From IMG/VR virus record IMGVR_UViG_2619619134_000011: a stretch of DNA of 13,009 bases, one strand, 5' to 3'. Position numbers and translations under genes: made by a program. The stretch is from a virus. Its lineage: Duplodnaviria; Heunggongvirae; Uroviricota; Caudoviricetes. Each line of letters opens with the position of its first letter. Position 1 is the first letter of the stretch. Below the pieces are notes generated by a model. It saw nothing but the letters and a program-made list of their open reading frames with translations. It made no database searches and was not told the origin of the DNA. Shown here piece after piece: positions 7,793 to 13,009 of the stretch.

Positions 7793-8107
7793 TTATCTGT
7801 CCTGGTAATTTCGCCATATTTCATCGCTTACACCATCTATACCCATTTCAGCATAAGTGCGATCTACTGCCTTTCTCAGGTCTCCGAAGTTATCCGGCGG
7901 CTCCGGTGGCTTCTGTGCCTTCCTGGAACATTCCAGCCGTCGCATCGTAACCTGATGCCGTTCCTTGTCTGTCTCCACCAGCAGCATGACTTCACCCCAT
8001 CGCGCCGACGCCCTCCGGTAAAAGCCTTTCGCCTCGAGTTCTTCCGCTATGCGGTCATGTACCATCGCCACCCCCTCAGAACGGAATACCGTCACCGTAA
8101 GGGTCAT
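7793..8107 (-). CDS. Small regulatory protein, PerC-like (tentative)
   Basis: Track ORF 7793-8185 trimmed to the ATG at 8107 (104 aa) so that it overlaps the SSB stop only modestly. The segment AEELEAKGFYRRASARWGEVM ... DKERHQV.MRR matches my recollection of the PerC/Pch family. Not verified by search. Confidence 0.4.
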   Translation of the reverse strand: MTLTVTVFRSEGVAMVHDRIAEELEAKGFYRRASARWGEVMLLVETDKERHQVTMRRLECSRKAQKPPEPPDNFGDLRKAVDRTYAEMGIDGVSDEIWRNYQDR

Positions 8108-8486
8108 CGCCTCCCGCTGGTGGCTGATTACCCTGTGTGCCTGTGGTTTTGCGTCTGTTCCCGCCAGGACGTGCCGCACGGGCACTGATTACGCTGTCTG
8201 CAATAACCTGATAACCCTGCCGCGTTTCCCCGTTCTGTCCCGTCCACTGGCTGACCTGCATCGTGCCGGATACGCTGGCAACGTCGCCTTTTTGATGTTT
8301 AGCCAGGAAGTCGGCCTGCTTACCAAATGCGATGACCGATAGCCATAACGTCGCCTGCCCATCCTGCGCCTGACTACATGGCAACGATACCGCCATACGC
8401 GCCAGCGTCATCGGTGTGCCCTTACTGGTCTGTTTTACCTGCGGGTCGTCCACCAGCCGCCCGTAAGCCGCTATCTGTGCTGTCAT
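8076..8486 (-). CDS. ssb: Single-stranded DNA-binding protein
   Basis: 136 aa, alignable by eye to E. coli SSB (WLSVIAFGKQADFLAKHQKGDVASVSGTMQVSQWTGQNGETRQGY versus [44 protein letters not shown]), with a Gly/Pro-rich linker and the acidic C-terminal tip DDPYGDGIPF (compare DDDIPF). Confidence 0.8.
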   Translation of the reverse strand: MTAQIAAYGRLVDDPQVKQTSKGTPMTLARMAVSLPCSQAQDGQATLWLSVIAFGKQADFLAKHQKGDVASVSGTMQVSQWTGQNGETRQGYQVIADSVISARAARPGGNRRKTTGTQGNQPPAGGDDPYGDGIPF

Positions 8487-9049: not shown

Positions 9050-10804
9050 TTATAAAAACGCGTCGCAATCGTCTGTTGTTATTGCGTTAGTCTGCGTTAC
9101 TCCCTTAACTTTCCGCGTAATATATTCATGTCCGTAAACTTTCGCGGCTGGCTTCATAGCCTTGCCAAAGTCATTTACGTTTAGCGGTTTGCTCCTGCCT
9201 GCGTACGCCATAAACGCCAGATAGACGCGGTAAAGGCTGTTTCTGGTCGTGTACTTCACTGAATCGCCACCGCCGCCCATCATCAGGCCGCGTGCTTCCT
9301 CCAGAAAATTCAGGAACTGGCAAAACTCAATAACCGGATCCGTCTGTTGCTTTATTGCCAGTGCTTCATCACCGTCACGCTGTTCAATGAGTAAAGCCCG
9401 TGCCTTTTCAGGGTCGGCAAAGTTCGCCAGCAAGCGGCGGATAATCACAGGGATTTCAGCCGCGATCTTTTCCGGTAGCTCCCTGTCTTTTTCTGCCTCG
9501 CTTACGATGTTATCGAACCGGAATATCACCCGACGACGTGCCACACCTCCGGCCCGTTCGGTGAATATCATCGGATTGTTATTGGTTGCCAGCACCACCG
9601 CCCTGATTACCGCCGTAAAACGCTTTTCATATTTCGGGTTAATTTCCACGGGGTCGCCGCCCGTGATTTTCTTGATGCCCGTTCCTTCGCCTGTATATTT
9701 CGGCTGGTCTGCCAGGACGATAAGACGACTCCCGACAACCTGCGCACGCCCACCAGCATCATCAAGCGATGTCATTTCAGCGCTTACCGTGTTCTGTTTC
9801 CCTGCCAGAAGGCTGGCTATGTGTGTGAATGTACTTTTACCGCTCCCGCCGTCTCCGGTGGCCTCAATAAACATCTGCCAGTCGTACCGGTTCGCCATAA
9901 TCATGTACAGCGCGGCACATATACGCATCATCTTGCGCGGGTCTTTTCCGGCTGCGTGCTCAAGCCATTTATGAAAGTTTGGCGCGTTATCGCGGATGTT
10001 CTCCCCTGGTGCTGGTGGCGTGTACTCAATGCCGTTGTGCGTGGTGATCCAGTTCTCCGGCGTGTGCGGGGAAAATTCCCCCGTTTTCAGGTCAAGCGCA
10101 CCATTGGCGAACGGCAGCAAATCGCCGGACGGCTCGCCCATTGGTTCGGCAATAACTTTTAACGCTTCCACGGCGTTATTGATTACGCGCTTGCTGAAAG
10201 TGGCCCTGTGCTCTGAATAGATCGCCACCATTTCGCGGCTAAGTTCCATTGTGCTGACCGGACACCATACCCCGCCGCGCCATACGTGAACGATTTCACT
10301 TTCAGGATGTACGCAAACGCCATCAAAGCGATCGGCAAGCAGCTGCGCGCGCTCACTGTCCGCCATCTGCGAAAGTTGCGCCTTTTGCTTTACCGGAAGC
10401 TCAATGACCAGACCATCAGAAAGATTCTGGCGCTCACGGGCCAGATATTCGCGCCAGTTCTCCACCTTCTGACCGTGCATACCCTCAGGATAAAAATTTG
10501 CATCCTGTACGCCTGCCGCCGCCAGCTTCTGGCCAATCGCCTTTATCATTACTGGCGCAAGATATCCGGCCCTGAATATGCGCACGGATTTTCTGCCTTC
10601 CGGCACAATTTGCAGCTTATCCAGTTCTGATAACTGCTGCTCCCCAAGCCACACAGGAGGCTCATTATCTCCGGCCATACGCGCATCATGTTCCTGCCAT
10701 TGTTTCGCGTGTGCCCAGGCATCACTACCCGCAAAAATAATGACTTCTGTTCCTTTGTGTTTTATGCCGCGTGACTGCTGTTTTACGTTCGGTGCCAGTT
10801 TCAT
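9050..10804 (-). CDS. DNA primase/helicase (P4 alpha-like, D5/SF3 NTPase)
   Basis: 584 aa with Walker A GDGGSGKST and a following hydrophobic-D Walker B-like segment (RLIVLAD). Its start overlaps the upstream ORF stop as ATGA. Typical satellite replication gene next to its origin. Confidence 0.8.
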   Translation of the reverse strand: MKLAPNVKQQSRGIKHKGTEVIIFAGSDAWAHAKQWQEHDARMAGDNEPPVWLGEQQLSELDKLQIVPEGRKSVRIFRAGYLAPVMIKAIGQKLAAAGVQDANFYPEGMHGQKVENWREYLARERQNLSDGLVIELPVKQKAQLSQMADSERAQLLADRFDGVCVHPESEIVHVWRGGVWCPVSTMELSREMVAIYSEHRATFSKRVINNAVEALKVIAEPMGEPSGDLLPFANGALDLKTGEFSPHTPENWITTHNGIEYTPPAPGENIRDNAPNFHKWLEHAAGKDPRKMMRICAALYMIMANRYDWQMFIEATGDGGSGKSTFTHIASLLAGKQNTVSAEMTSLDDAGGRAQVVGSRLIVLADQPKYTGEGTGIKKITGGDPVEINPKYEKRFTAVIRAVVLATNNNPMIFTERAGGVARRRVIFRFDNIVSEAEKDRELPEKIAAEIPVIIRRLLANFADPEKARALLIEQRDGDEALAIKQQTDPVIEFCQFLNFLEEARGLMMGGGGDSVKYTTRNSLYRVYLAFMAYAGRSKPLNVNDFGKAMKPAAKVYGHEYITRKVKGVTQTNAITTDDCDAFL

Positions 10805-11100
10805 TTTTTACCCCTGAATCCTTTAATCATGGTTTTCATCTTCTGAATATTGGCGCGTGCTTTCTCCCTGCTGGTGGGCACGTTACGCGGTACGGCCTGC
10901 ACAAGAGAAAAATCACGGTCGAACTGATAAACAGGCATCACGCAATCATATTCGTAACCTTCACGGCGGTAAGTTACGCACCGTCCCGCCACGCCCTTAA
11001 TCATTACCGTGCCGCCGTACTGGTCGCGGTAAATATCACCGCGCGTAAATTTAGGGTGAGTGTTGCCACTGGCAGTTAAGCCAGAATATTTAAGTTTCAT
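10801..11100 (-). CDS. Hypothetical protein (99 aa)
   Basis: ORF with GGAG upstream of the ATG, translationally coupled to primase. Basic C-terminus. No recognised motif. Confidence 0.5.
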   Translation of the reverse strand: MKLKYSGLTASGNTHPKFTRGDIYRDQYGGTVMIKGVAGRCVTYRREGYEYDCVMPVYQFDRDFSLVQAVPRNVPTSREKARANIQKMKTMIKGFRGKK

Positions 11101-11105
11101 TATTT

Positions 11106-11339
11106 TTATTCTCCGGTGTGCTGTTCTTTATATCTGTCGTGCAATAGATCTATTTCTTGCAGTTCCATTATTACAGGCTCAAGAAGCGTTATTAATGCCG
11201 TGGCAATTCTTGATTTTTGTTTGTCGCGTTCATTGTCGCCAAGTGTTTCAAGCCATATGCGCAATATTTCCAGCATGTTTTCACTGTGAGAAAGTGCAAG
11301 AAATGCGCGGTCTATTGTTTGGTGGTAAATATCACGCAT
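11106..11339 (-). CDS. Hypothetical protein (77 aa)
   Basis: Tightly packed ORF in the same operon, with a G-rich Shine-Dalgarno-like sequence upstream. No recognised motif. Confidence 0.45.
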   Translation of the reverse strand: MRDIYHQTIDRAFLALSHSENMLEILRIWLETLGDNERDKQKSRIATALITLLEPVIMELQEIDLLHDRYKEQHTGE

Positions 11340-11340
11340 A

Positions 11341-11562
11341 TTAATCCCCGTCCGTCGTTTTTCTTAAAATAACCTCTGTCACGAAATCAGCATAATCGGC
11401 GGCGATATTCAGTACATCAATCCCCGTTGATTTATATTCTCTCGTGGAAAGTAAGAAAAAAGCCGCTCTAATAAGCTCTGGCATTGACGAAAGCGCATCA
11501 GCCGCATCATCAGGAACGCCGGAAAATTCCTGTTTCAGGGAATTAAAACGATCATCACGCAT
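11341..11562 (-). CDS. Hypothetical protein (73 aa)
   Basis: ATG at 11562 preceded by AGGGGGG; overlaps the stop of the upstream gene by 8 nt. No recognised motif. Confidence 0.5.
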   Translation of the reverse strand: MRDDRFNSLKQEFSGVPDDAADALSSMPELIRAAFFLLSTREYKSTGIDVLNIAADYADFVTEVILRKTTDGD

Positions 11563-11920
11563 GTTTACCCCCCTGAATGACCTGATAACCGCAACTGGTC
11601 AGCAACTCGATAAATTCCGGCAGTGTGCCGAAACAGCAATCATCACGCAGCCGTTCGCAGGATACCTCGACGCCGTTTTCGTAGTGACTCACCATACATC
11701 CGGTAAAATGCAGATCATCATCGTGATGGCTCGTTGACGGCTTAATCAGTCGCGCACGTTCCGCCAGTTCCAGCAATGCTTCAACGCTTCCGGCAATTGC
11801 ACCATCCGGCAGGTGATAATTACGCACTATGCGCCCGTTCTCCACATTGACCAGCAACTGCCCGGTAAATTTCTCGTCAAACTGAATGCTGTTAAGGTCA
11901 GAAATTGACAGGTTATGCAT
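11555..11920 (-). CDS. Hypothetical protein (121 aa)
   Basis: Track ORF 11555-11938 trimmed to the ATG at 11920, which has a near-perfect AGGAGGTG Shine-Dalgarno 6 nt upstream and overlaps the upstream stop. No recognised motif. Confidence 0.55.
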   Translation of the reverse strand: MHNLSISDLNSIQFDEKFTGQLLVNVENGRIVRNYHLPDGAIAGSVEALLELAERARLIKPSTSHHDDDLHFTGCMVSHYENGVEVSCERLRDDCCFGTLPEFIELLTSCGYQVIQGGKHA

Positions 11921-12137
11921 GGTGCACCTCCTGCACATCAGCCATGATAATTTTTCCGGCCTTATCCAGTGCCTGATCGGCTTTTAGCTGCACAAATGCT
12001 AAATAATGGAAGATGCATTCTGATTCTCTGGCTGCGTGTTTATGCGCCCTGTCAGCAATAACAGAAATATCAATAAGCGCGTGCATCAGCGTAGTGAGCG
12101 CGGCGGCTGCTGCGTCCGGTGTGGTTTTATTGCACAT
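11913..12137 (-). CDS. Hypothetical protein (74 aa)
   Basis: ORF in the operon stack, overlapping both neighbours. No recognised motif. Confidence 0.45.
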   Translation of the reverse strand: MCNKTTPDAAAAALTTLMHALIDISVIADRAHKHAARESECIFHYLAFVQLKADQALDKAGKIIMADVQEVHHA

Positions 12138-12333
12138 GGCCTACCCCCTGGCGAATACGGGCAGCGAATACCATCACGCAGCCATCAGGAGATTGCTGAC
12201 GCGCTTCCTGTTCGCTGGTGGCCTCAATGGTAATCACGCGCGGTTGTGCCGTGCTCAGGGCGATAAAACGCCAGATGTATTTATTCAGGTTGTGCGAGTC
12301 CCGCCCTTGCGGGTGTGTGGTATGATTTCTCAT
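12127..12333 (-). CDS. Hypothetical protein (68 aa), first gene of the leftward operon
   Basis: C-terminal part of track ORF 12127-12789, starting at the ATG at 12333 with AGGT 4 nt upstream. The upstream 150 codons of the track ORF are antisense to the RHH gene and read through the operators and a terminator hairpin, so were discarded. Confidence 0.4.
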   Translation of the reverse strand: MRNHTTHPQGRDSHNLNKYIWRFIALSTAQPRVITIEATSEQEARQQSPDGCVMVFAARIRQGVGHVQ

Positions 12334-12433
12334 AGCTACCTCGATACGCTTTCTATCGTTGGTGGTTAGAAGCCCTGCGAGTGTTCCACCACTGCGGGGC
12401 TTCGCTGTATTTAATGGTTGCGTATCTTCAATA

Positions 12434-12478
12434 TGGTACGTACCATTGGGTTTCAGTTTATAACGGTGGTACGTACCA
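12434..12478. promoter_or_regulatory. Twin palindromic operators in the divergent intergenic region
   Basis: Two identical perfect 12-bp palindromes TGGTACGTACCA at 12434-12445 and 12467-12478, centres 33 bp apart. The second ends 1 nt before the ATG of the plus-strand RHH-like gene. They lie between the divergent starts at 12333 (minus) and 12479 (plus). Confidence 0.65.
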
Positions 12479-12661
12479 ATGCAAGAAAAAAATGAGAAAC
12501 CAAAATTTGATCGCTCTGGCAGCACAAAGAAAAACATCCGCTTCGAAGACACATTGTTGCAACAAATTAACGAAGTTGCTGGGCCTGGTAATTTCAGTTC
12601 ATGGGTTAAAAATGCCTGTCGTGACAAGCTACGCAAAGAAGGCATAGAACCAAAAGGCTGA
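12479..12661 (+). CDS. Small DNA-binding regulator, ribbon-helix-helix-like (60 aa)
   Basis: The only convincing plus-strand gene. The pattern basic N-terminus, KKNIRFEDTLLQQINEVAG, G.NFSSWVKNACRDKL fits a beta-strand plus two-helix RHH fold as I recall it. GGTGG lies 9 nt upstream of the ATG; a terminator follows. Confidence 0.5.
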   Translation: MQEKNEKPKFDRSGSTKKNIRFEDTLLQQINEVAGPGNFSSWVKNACRDKLRKEGIEPKG

Positions 12662-12752
12662 TAGTCCACCAGCAAGCCAGCACACTGAGCACATTGCCCA
12701 CCAGCCAGCAAATCGCTATGATGTTCGGGCTTATGTTTAGTGTTTTCCCATT

Positions 12753-12780
12753 GGCGACCGCCCCAGGTCGCCTTTGTTTT
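12753..12780 (+). terminator. Rho-independent terminator after the RHH-like gene
   Basis: GGCGACC-GCCCCA-GGTCGCC (7-bp GC-rich stem) followed by TTTGTTTT on the plus strand, between the RHH gene and the end of alpA. Confidence 0.6.
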
Positions 12781-12799
12781 ATGTGTCATATGCTCCCCT

Positions 12800-13009
12800 T
12801 TACACTGCCTTACCTGAATTAATGCGATCCCGGCTTTTAACCCATTCCATAACCTCGGACAGCAGCCACCCTACAGAACGACCGCCCAGATTAAGACGTG
12901 ACGGAAAGCGCCCTTTTTTCTCCAGTTCGTAACGTGTAGTGCGGCACACTCCAGTTAACTTACGACATTCATCCTCACGGATTACGCGATCTTCATTTAT
13001 TTCACGCAT
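12800..13009 (-). CDS. alpA: AlpA-family transcriptional regulator / excisionase-like protein
   Basis: 69 aa with the HTH segment CRKLTGVCRTTRYELEKKGRFPSRLNLGGRSVGWLLSEVMEWV, characteristic of AlpA-family proteins. The ATG is the last three bases of the window, so the upstream region (and any integrase) is outside it. Confidence 0.8.
   Translation of the reverse strand: MREINEDRVIREDECRKLTGVCRTTRYELEKKGRFPSRLNLGGRSVGWLLSEVMEWVKSRDRINSGKAV

Follow-up and report, generated by a model that had tools for sequence, protein, structure and literature searches.

Six conserved small genes between alpA and the primase of a capsid-forming phage satellite

Introduction

Phage-inducible chromosomal islands of the capsid-forming kind (cf-PICIs) are known as an element type from papers that also established the dependence of their induction on alpA, and in which the genes between alpA and the replicase were left uncharacterised. 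We analysed that interval in a stretch of viral DNA of 13,009 nucleotides (nt), called here the window (IMG/VR record IMGVR_UViG_2619619134_000011, Caudoviricetes), which sequence comparison identifies as a cf-PICI of the Escherichia coli EcCIEDL933 type. The interval holds an array of six small open reading frames (ORFs) on the minus strand, numbered here O6 to O1 in the direction of translation.

Relatives of two of these genes have been studied elsewhere. In phage P1, icd and ant1 overlap by 4 nt, and according to its annotation icd is needed for ant to be expressed; a 2025 study found the core of P1 Icd, residues 12–51, to be sufficient for FtsZ binding, a block of the Z-ring and filamentation. 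RgdR (ECs1581, from O-island 51/CP-933C of E. coli O157:H7) activates LEE1, in the enterocyte effacement locus (LEE), and type III secretion, represses motility and shows non-specific binding to DNA. Residues R20 and K35 are important for its activity, natural variants differ in activity, and truncated copies occur in other O-islands, away from replicases. In ECOR61, cell death triggered by phage orf24 is suppressed by insertions in a gene for an Icd-like protein of 121 amino acids (aa) and in two overlapping downstream genes for hypothetical proteins, the Icd-like protein being the likely death effector (Silas et al., bioRxiv 10.1101/2023.04.06.535777).

Judged from sequence, O1 and O6 have such well-studied relatives, and O2–O5 are catalogued but uncharacterised proteins that appear to be specific to satellites. 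We think it fairly probable that the array is an early, AlpA-dependent polycistron of a cf-PICI whose genes are chained translationally, with an Icd-like blocker of FtsZ encoded first and an RgdR-type co-regulator encoded last, together with the replicase.

Results

A previous reading of the window, made from the letters alone (the sequence-only reading), had placed six small ORFs of 68–121 aa between a regulator and a primase, and we confirmed each of them at its coordinates, the set lying exactly at 10801–12333 on the minus strand. The ORFs had been described as overlapping, which holds for three junctions, O6/O5 (11 nt) and O5/O4 and O4/O3 (8 nt each); the other two are gaps, of 1 nt at O3/O2 and 5 nt at O2/O1. 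O1 in turn overlaps the primase gene by 4 nt (ATGA). Good Shine–Dalgarno (SD) sequences had been seen for several ORFs, and a purine-rich SD-like motif indeed precedes all six starts, 3–10 nt upstream. The same ORFs are annotated by RefSeq/PGAP in related E. coli islands, and public databases already hold the exact sequence of each of the six proteins, in some cases from at least 1000 contigs.

We estimated the ratio of nonsynonymous to synonymous substitution (dN/dS) by the Nei–Gojobori method between the window and its homologs in 73 loci (67 IMG/VR loci fetched through O4 and 6 RefSeq loci), read at appreciable divergence. A second set, of 80 loci, was selected through O1, and both sets were thus chosen by similarity to array genes. 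Ratios were 0.06–0.5 for O6, 0.2–0.36 for O5, 0.04–0.35 for O4, 0.12–0.34 (at high dS) for O3, 0.22–0.34 for O2 and 0.24–0.5 for O1, with 0.04–0.14 for the primase as a comparison. An absence of coding conservation had been named beforehand as grounds for giving up the sequence-only reading; values of about 0.04–0.5 for all six point the other way. Together with the conserved overlaps at the junctions, these ratios indicate that the ORFs are real, far beyond chance. We conclude that all six are conserved coding genes under purifying selection.

Each of the six ORFs has a PHROG family. The second outcome named as grounds for giving up that reading was that all of the ORFs would prove to have clear housekeeping homologs, and none of the six has one in Pfam, NCBIfam, PHROG or PADLOC searches. 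PADLOC-DB defence models gave no match for any of them at E ≤ 0.1. PDB sequence searches with all six gave chance matches only; armadillo-repeat matches to residues 94–116 of O4 were compositional. Neither BLASTP nor hhalign detected paralogy among the six, and the matches of O3, O4 and O5 to PHROG 2512, which could be taken as a sign of paralogy, are explained by fusion proteins within that PHROG. When 50,697 phage genomes were searched by BLAST, O1–O5 found no match and O6 matched only one 16.5-kb 'induced prophage' record, itself cf-PICI-like. The O1–O6 set therefore appears to be specific to satellites. The view that none of the six could be assigned has to be dropped for O1 (DUF4222/RgdR) and O6 (Icd-like), which profile searches of the kind that had been proposed matched to known families. 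It stands for O2–O5, which have no family match: the profile and structure searches gave for them only PHROGs of unknown function and, for a model of O4, no matching fold.

O6 (12127–12333, minus strand; 68 aa, isoelectric point (pI) 10.0) is Icd-like and has its own conserved SD and ATG (TATCGAGGTAGCTATG). It scored 70.4 bits against NCBIfam NF033153 (Icd; cutoff 25), for which P1 Icd itself scored 52.6 bits. By BLASTP, residues 18–60 of O6 aligned with residues 11–50 of P1 Icd at 37% identity (pairwise E of 2e-7). The positions conserved between the two are W14, R15, F16, E32, PDG40–42, A48 and R49, so that O6 keeps the counterparts of P1 Icd R15, E32, A48 and R49. We conclude that O6 is a homolog of phage P1 Icd and that the aligned stretch corresponds almost exactly to the 40-residue FtsZ-binding core.

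The leader just upstream of the O6 SD contains a stable stem–loop at 12369–12403 (minus strand; fold of 12310–12450, z = −3.7), which matches no Rfam family. Its loop, UGGUGG, is complementary to a CCACCA 3 nt past the stem, which makes a pseudoknot possible. More widely, Rfam detected no C4/CI-type or other RNA family at gathering thresholds, nor at E ≤ 10 over 10700–13009; a C4-type antisense RNA upstream of O6 was thus not found even at this relaxed threshold.

O1 (10801–11100, minus strand; 99 aa, pI 10.06) has the sequence RGD at residues 20–22, and its stop overlaps the primase start. It matched Pfam DUF4222 (PF13973) with 81 bits (cutoff 27; E of 4.5e-23). The corresponding slot in the island of E. 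coli O157:H7 strain 2571 is occupied by a DUF4222 protein with 91% identity to O1, and the two are the same over residues 1–37. O1 has the marks of an RgdR ortholog, namely a length of 99 aa, RGD at 20–22, a basic pI and the conserved core 20–68, and it also falls within the definition of Flockhart et al. (CP-933C-type island position and >77% identity). On this evidence we assign O1 as an RgdR ortholog. A genome-collection scan with DUF4222 found only 3 loci and added no information.

Within O2 and upstream of O1 lies a promoter-like site, TTAATA-17-AATAAT with an extended TG (11167–11195, minus strand). Published deletion phenotypes imply that RgdR is expressed at a basal level, for which such a site could be the source; promoter-like sites of this kind are no more numerous in the region than in shuffled sequence.

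The four remaining ORFs, all on the minus strand, encode acidic proteins (pI 4.4–6.3): O2 (11106–11339; 77 aa, pI 5.1), O3 (11341–11562; 73 aa, pI 4.4), O4 (11555–11920; 121 aa, pI 5.1) and O5 (11913–12137; 74 aa, pI 6.3). O2 belongs to phrog_2196 (4e-42) and O5 to phrog_5146 (1e-44), and O3 matches phrog_24341 together with the C-terminal half of phrog_2512; all three are probably helical, judged from sequence. No Pfam, NCBIfam, PADLOC or PDB relative was found for O2–O5. O2, which lies just upstream of O1 in E. coli-type islands, has 527 database clusters, and the 120 listed are all unnamed or called 'hypothetical/prophage protein' and come nearly all from E. coli. We conclude that O2–O5 are, as far as these comparisons indicate, small acidic proteins almost confined to enterobacterial satellites.

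O4, whose ATG is preceded by AGGAGG, is a tandem duplication of a unit of about 50 aa made up of a β-hairpin and a helix (alignments A1/A4). Deletion forms recombined between the two units and single-unit forms also exist, and the family has 31 cluster representatives among 1.84 billion. A fold search of PDB and BFVD with the O4 model gave no match. A 66-aa single-unit relative of O4 (hhalign probability 95.6%) fills the O2 slot in many related islands (L027:4585–4785 and others). Natural fusions join O5 to O3 (P0032/P0033), O4 to O3 (P0092/P0097) and, in a distant relative, an O4 unit to O5 and a further O4 unit (P0177). Because they are fused in several combinations in other islands, O5, O4 and O3 probably act together.

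A poly-G tract occupies the 3′ end of O4, before the O4/O3 junction (11563–11575), and is G6 in the window. Its length varies among islands (G6 in 55 loci, G7 in 4, G8 in 3 and G10 in 2), and a G8 tract joins O4 to O3 in frame to give 197 aa (variant loci L049, L056 and L059). This variation could reflect either slippage-prone phase variation or homopolymer sequencing error.

Across the 73 O4-selected and 80 O1-selected loci, the ends of the array are constant and its middle is variable. The Icd-like gene forms the 5′ end. At the 3′ end stands the DUF4222 gene, which in 73/73 and 80/80 loci has a stop codon overlapping the start of the replicase, an arrangement held across replicase types (primase, RepA-type helicase, DUF5906 and DUF927). 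The overlap at the O5/O4 junction is also conserved (52/52 loci). The neighbour of the Icd-like gene is not constant and can be O5, O4 or a 76-aa ORF, depending on the island; in some islands the first Icd-like gene is followed by this 76-aa ORF (probably helical, from its sequence) or by a second Icd-like gene, of 153 aa. Junctions are stereotyped, one ORF ending in ...HA* and the next beginning with M-[H/R/C]-[N/D] (MHN, MRD or MCN; ATGCATAA, ATGCGTGA and ATGTGCAATAA). Gene pairs that differ from island to island are connected by identical junction sequences, which is what recombination joints would show; the junctions are probably used for translational coupling as well as for recombination.

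The mosaic pattern includes the start of the replicase. Its N-terminal residues 1 to ~125 (10430–10804), upstream of D5_N, are 45–66% identical to RepA-type helicases and other replicases and move with the DUF4222 gene as one mosaic block (L002, L007, L010 and others). About one-third of complete E. coli genomes (1698 of 5426) have parts of the array, among them O157:H7 and further pathogenic serotypes, but only 137 of the 5426 have 80% or more of it. The element type and gene slot are already known, and the array is mostly ordinary for a cf-PICI-type element.

The most unusual feature lies just outside 10801–12333 and is a stop-free frame that runs from alpA to the Icd-like gene across an antisense gene for a candidate repressor. 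alpA (12800..13009, minus strand; 69 aa, Pfam Phage_AlpA 1.7e-16) encodes an AlpA-family regulator and is the true upstream neighbour of the array. The O6 frame stays open upstream to 12870, and an ATG at 12789 with the SD AGGGGAG, 10 nt past the alpA stop, defines a 220-aa ORF (12127–12789) that consists of O6 and a stop-free, in-frame upstream extension (12334..12789, minus strand). The sequence-only reading had taken 12333 as the head of the leftward operon. It is probably not, because the open frame and the SD and ATG so close to the alpA stop point to alpA as the probable first gene of the stacked chain.

In the O4-selected set the frame is open in all 59 distinct alpA–icd intervals, over 91–541 codons, and the other two frames in these intervals have ~5.9% stops. 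Of the 51 intervals in the O1-selected set, 30 have the extension fused in frame to Icd and 21 instead have another long same-strand ORF, of at least 171 codons, that terminates close to where Icd starts. The interval of the O157:H7 island has 528 nt without a plus-strand gene, and its frame is still open. Chance and plus-strand genes were considered as causes of the open frame and are ruled out by the stops in the other frames, by this 528-nt interval and by the long same-strand ORFs of the unfused intervals. The long ORFs of relatives are annotated as 'Icd-like' (235–342 aa), as 'ash family' or as a 324-aa hypothetical protein. Searched with Pfam and NCBIfam, the long upstream ORFs gave only a Bro-N fragment, below threshold, and that in the O157:H7 version. 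The SD and ATG of O6 itself are conserved alongside the open frame. Both a short and a long form of O6 are possible, and the extension may be a protein domain or merely a translated bridge.

Antisense within this upstream frame lies a YlcI/YnfO-family (DUF3950) gene, a candidate repressor gene (12479..12661, plus strand; Pfam DUF3950 5.4e-8, NCBIfam 31.1 bits with a cutoff of 30). Its third codon positions coincide with those of the O6 extension, as computed from the coordinates. Two copies of the 12-bp palindrome TGGTACGTACCA (12434–12445 and 12467–12478), where 0.01 matches were expected, abut the YlcI start and are candidate operators. Among 77 loci the palindrome recurs only in L044, the sole locus with a YlcI matching that of the window (100% identity). 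This co-occurrence with the identical allele is as expected for a repressor and its operators, and suggests that the YlcI-like protein and TGGTACGTACCA form an allele-specific repressor–operator pair. Downstream of the YlcI-like gene, a hairpin and T-run resemble an intrinsic terminator (12753..12782, plus strand); the minus strand of this hairpin encodes the conserved 'KTKATxxGRQWE' of the long ORF. A promoter and terminator scan found no more sites than in shuffled sequence. A candidate leftward promoter, TTGCAT-16-TATAAA (~12454–12481), was read by eye and not recovered by the promoter scan.

The wider gene content agrees with the description of cf-PICIs, in that the window has alpA, a replicase and its own capsid, protease, portal, connectors and terminase, and tail genes are absent (window ORFs, RefSeq names). 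The integrase position is outside the window. Read from right to left, the genes are alpA, the small-ORF array, a P4/D5-type primase, SSB, PerC, capsid, protease, portal, connectors, HNH and terminase; this chain is on the minus strand throughout, with the YlcI/YnfO-like gene on the plus strand. The satellite setting proposed from the letters alone was borne out, both by this cf-PICI content and by the packaging module, which is 97.8% identical across 6.9 kb to that of the O157:H7 strain 2571 island, located between phoQ and roxA. Across 10430–12408, the small-ORF array and that of the same island share 91% identity. The P4/D5-type primase-helicase (9050..10804, minus strand; 584 aa; Pfam D5_N, DUF5906 and Pox_D5) is the downstream end of the translational chain. 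A PerC-family regulator in the 7793–8486 region adjoins SSB (Pfam 2e-44 over residues 41–129 of a 130-aa ORF). As listed, the PerC and SSB ORFs share ~110 nt, and the true PerC start is therefore probably internal to the PerC ORF.

Discussion

We favour the reading of the array as an AlpA-dependent, translationally chained polycistron. Once alpA is on, ribosomes that begin at alpA, or at the start of O6, would pass without interruption through the abutting ORFs as far as the primase. The context of overlapping starts and stops suggests that expression of each gene, and finally of the primase, would depend on translation of the gene before it, in the manner of P1 icd and ant. The chain most likely starts at alpA, by way of the stop-free frame that runs into O6. 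By homology, O6 would block the FtsZ ring, preventing division while the island replicates and is packaged. O1 would be a small, basic, DNA-binding co-regulator of the RgdR type that alters host transcription (LEE and motility); its homology and position suggest that it is co-translated with the replicase and acts on DNA or on host regulators. O5, O4 and O3, to judge from the fusions elsewhere, may form one working unit, and from their context O2–O5 would, rather than being enzymes, be small acidic proteins that bind and modulate proteins of the host or of phages.

Several points weigh against this proposal. The functions given to O6 and O1 are homology-based, in the case of O6 at 37% identity. 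For RgdR to have its LEE phenotype it would have to be expressed without induction, and a chain that depends strictly on AlpA does not account for this. The candidate promoter for O6 and the conserved internal SD suggest that expression independent of alpA read-through is also possible. In the window-type extension, the variable sites are distributed without codon-position bias (15/17/16 and 11/13/15), and no constraint at the amino-acid level is seen. The AlphaFold2 model of O4 is of medium confidence (mean predicted local distance difference test score, pLDDT, 68), and homopolymer tracts could have produced some of the gene fusions artefactually, through frameshifts or misassembly.

The array has also been thought to hold helper-sensing, interference or accessory functions. 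An accessory or interference role is plausible because RgdR, represented by a 91%-identical protein in the same slot, and the Icd-like cluster of ECOR61 have such roles; helper sensing is not supported. On one such view, the array, or its Icd-like gene with the following small ORFs and the primase, would be an abortive-infection or superinfection-exclusion system of the satellite, in which a phage protein is the trigger, the Icd-like protein arrests or kills the cell and the acidic proteins sense or restrain it. The ECOR61 transposon suppressors of phage-triggered death fall in just such an Icd-like gene and two small downstream genes, a comparable outcome was obtained with a P4-like satellite (involving AlpA, Icd-like, primase and a hypothetical gene), the gene architecture is that of the window, and the 121-aa Icd-like form exists in related islands. 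However, the small ORFs of ECOR61, of 61 and 63 aa, are likened to O2–O5 by description only, PADLOC finds no defence family in the array, the lack of a constant neighbour for the Icd-like gene argues against a dedicated antidote, and the toxicity in ECOR61 could be mere induction of the satellite. We regard this explanation as rather unlikely overall, yet as a serious rival that is compatible with the polycistron. Another proposal, which we rate as distinctly unlikely, treats everything from alpA to the primase as an ignition circuit coupled by translation, in which an unconstrained stop-free frame would bridge alpA to the Icd-like gene, antisense through the repressor gene of the island, and the Icd-like protein with O5, O4 and O3 would form a satellite-specific module that arrests the cell on triggering by a phage protein, as in ECOR61, with the unknown ORFs sensing or restraining it.

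Other alternatives concern single parts of the array. O1, with O2, might be a replication accessory, for example an origin-binding or replicase-loading factor, with virulence regulation as a side effect of non-specific DNA binding. The overlap of the DUF4222 stop with the replicase start in every locus of both sets, whatever the replicase type, the co-travelling of the first ~125 replicase residues and the non-specific DNA binding and pI of 10 of RgdR speak for such a role. The truncated RgdR copies that occur in O-islands away from replicases speak against it, and the adjacency of O1 and replicase may partly be shared ancestry, given that the locus sets were selected via array genes; we consider it doubtful. 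Similarly, O2–O5 might be anti-defence or host-takeover proteins that act at entry or induction, like the leading-region genes of plasmids. They are small, acidic, fast-shuffling and lineage-restricted and lie at the start of the early operon, beside a replication module that carries SSB; this case is circumstantial, however, and they resemble no known anti-defence protein or fold, so that we hold it to be quite improbable. That the small ORFs are only translated spacers, with functionless products, that keep ribosomes on the mRNA and prevent polarity is scarcely credible: the O6 upstream extension is spacer-like in being always open, with variable sites spread evenly over codon positions, but all six ORFs have dN/dS well below 1 and conserved lengths, and O1 and O6 have functional homologs.

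Combined in the array are a probable inhibitor of FtsZ, a regulator of a kind that alters motility and type III secretion, and four proteins that are conserved and appear confined to satellites. The functions of O2–O5 would show how cf-PICIs ready the cell before replication and whether the host is protected from other phages. The stop-free frame between alpA and icd, across the antisense repressor gene, offers a concrete case for translational coupling as a principle of satellite control.

The element shares its type and gene order with EcCIEDL933 and the Gram-negative PICIs (int – alpA – ... – pri/rep – packaging). The O157:H7 island, unlike the window, has the additional 76-aa ORF after its Icd-like gene, and its replicase is a RepA-type helicase, whereas that of the window is a primase; the same difference separates O1, which precedes a primase, from RgdR, which precedes a RepA-type helicase. 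O1 and RgdR are otherwise alike in their length of 99 aa, DUF4222 domain, RGD at 20–22, pI of ~10 and slot directly upstream of a cf-PICI replicase. O1 retains R20 and K35 and has A10, R45 and D61, the residues of the inactive RgdR variant of commensal ED1a, and its activity is therefore not predictable. In the ECOR61 cluster, as in the window, small overlapping ORFs come after an Icd-like gene, a DNA primase is linked to them and the element is satellite-like; compared by description, its Icd-like protein has 121 aa and its small ORFs 61 and 63 aa, whereas O6 has 68 aa. An Icd-like gene with an N-terminal extension characterises the ECOR61 type, and the O6 frame of the window, too, extends upstream. 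The immI operon of phage P1 (c4 – icd – ant1/ant2) has an Icd-family gene as its first protein-coding gene, to which O6 may be likened, and in both systems the stop of this gene overlaps the next start (icd/ant1 and O6/O5). P1 has the C4 RNA upstream of icd, where the window instead has the YlcI/YnfO-like gene, the palindromes and alpA; downstream, P1 has an antirepressor and the window has the small orphan ORFs and the primase. Finally, O6 in the window, unlike P1 icd, belongs to a frame that extends upstream.

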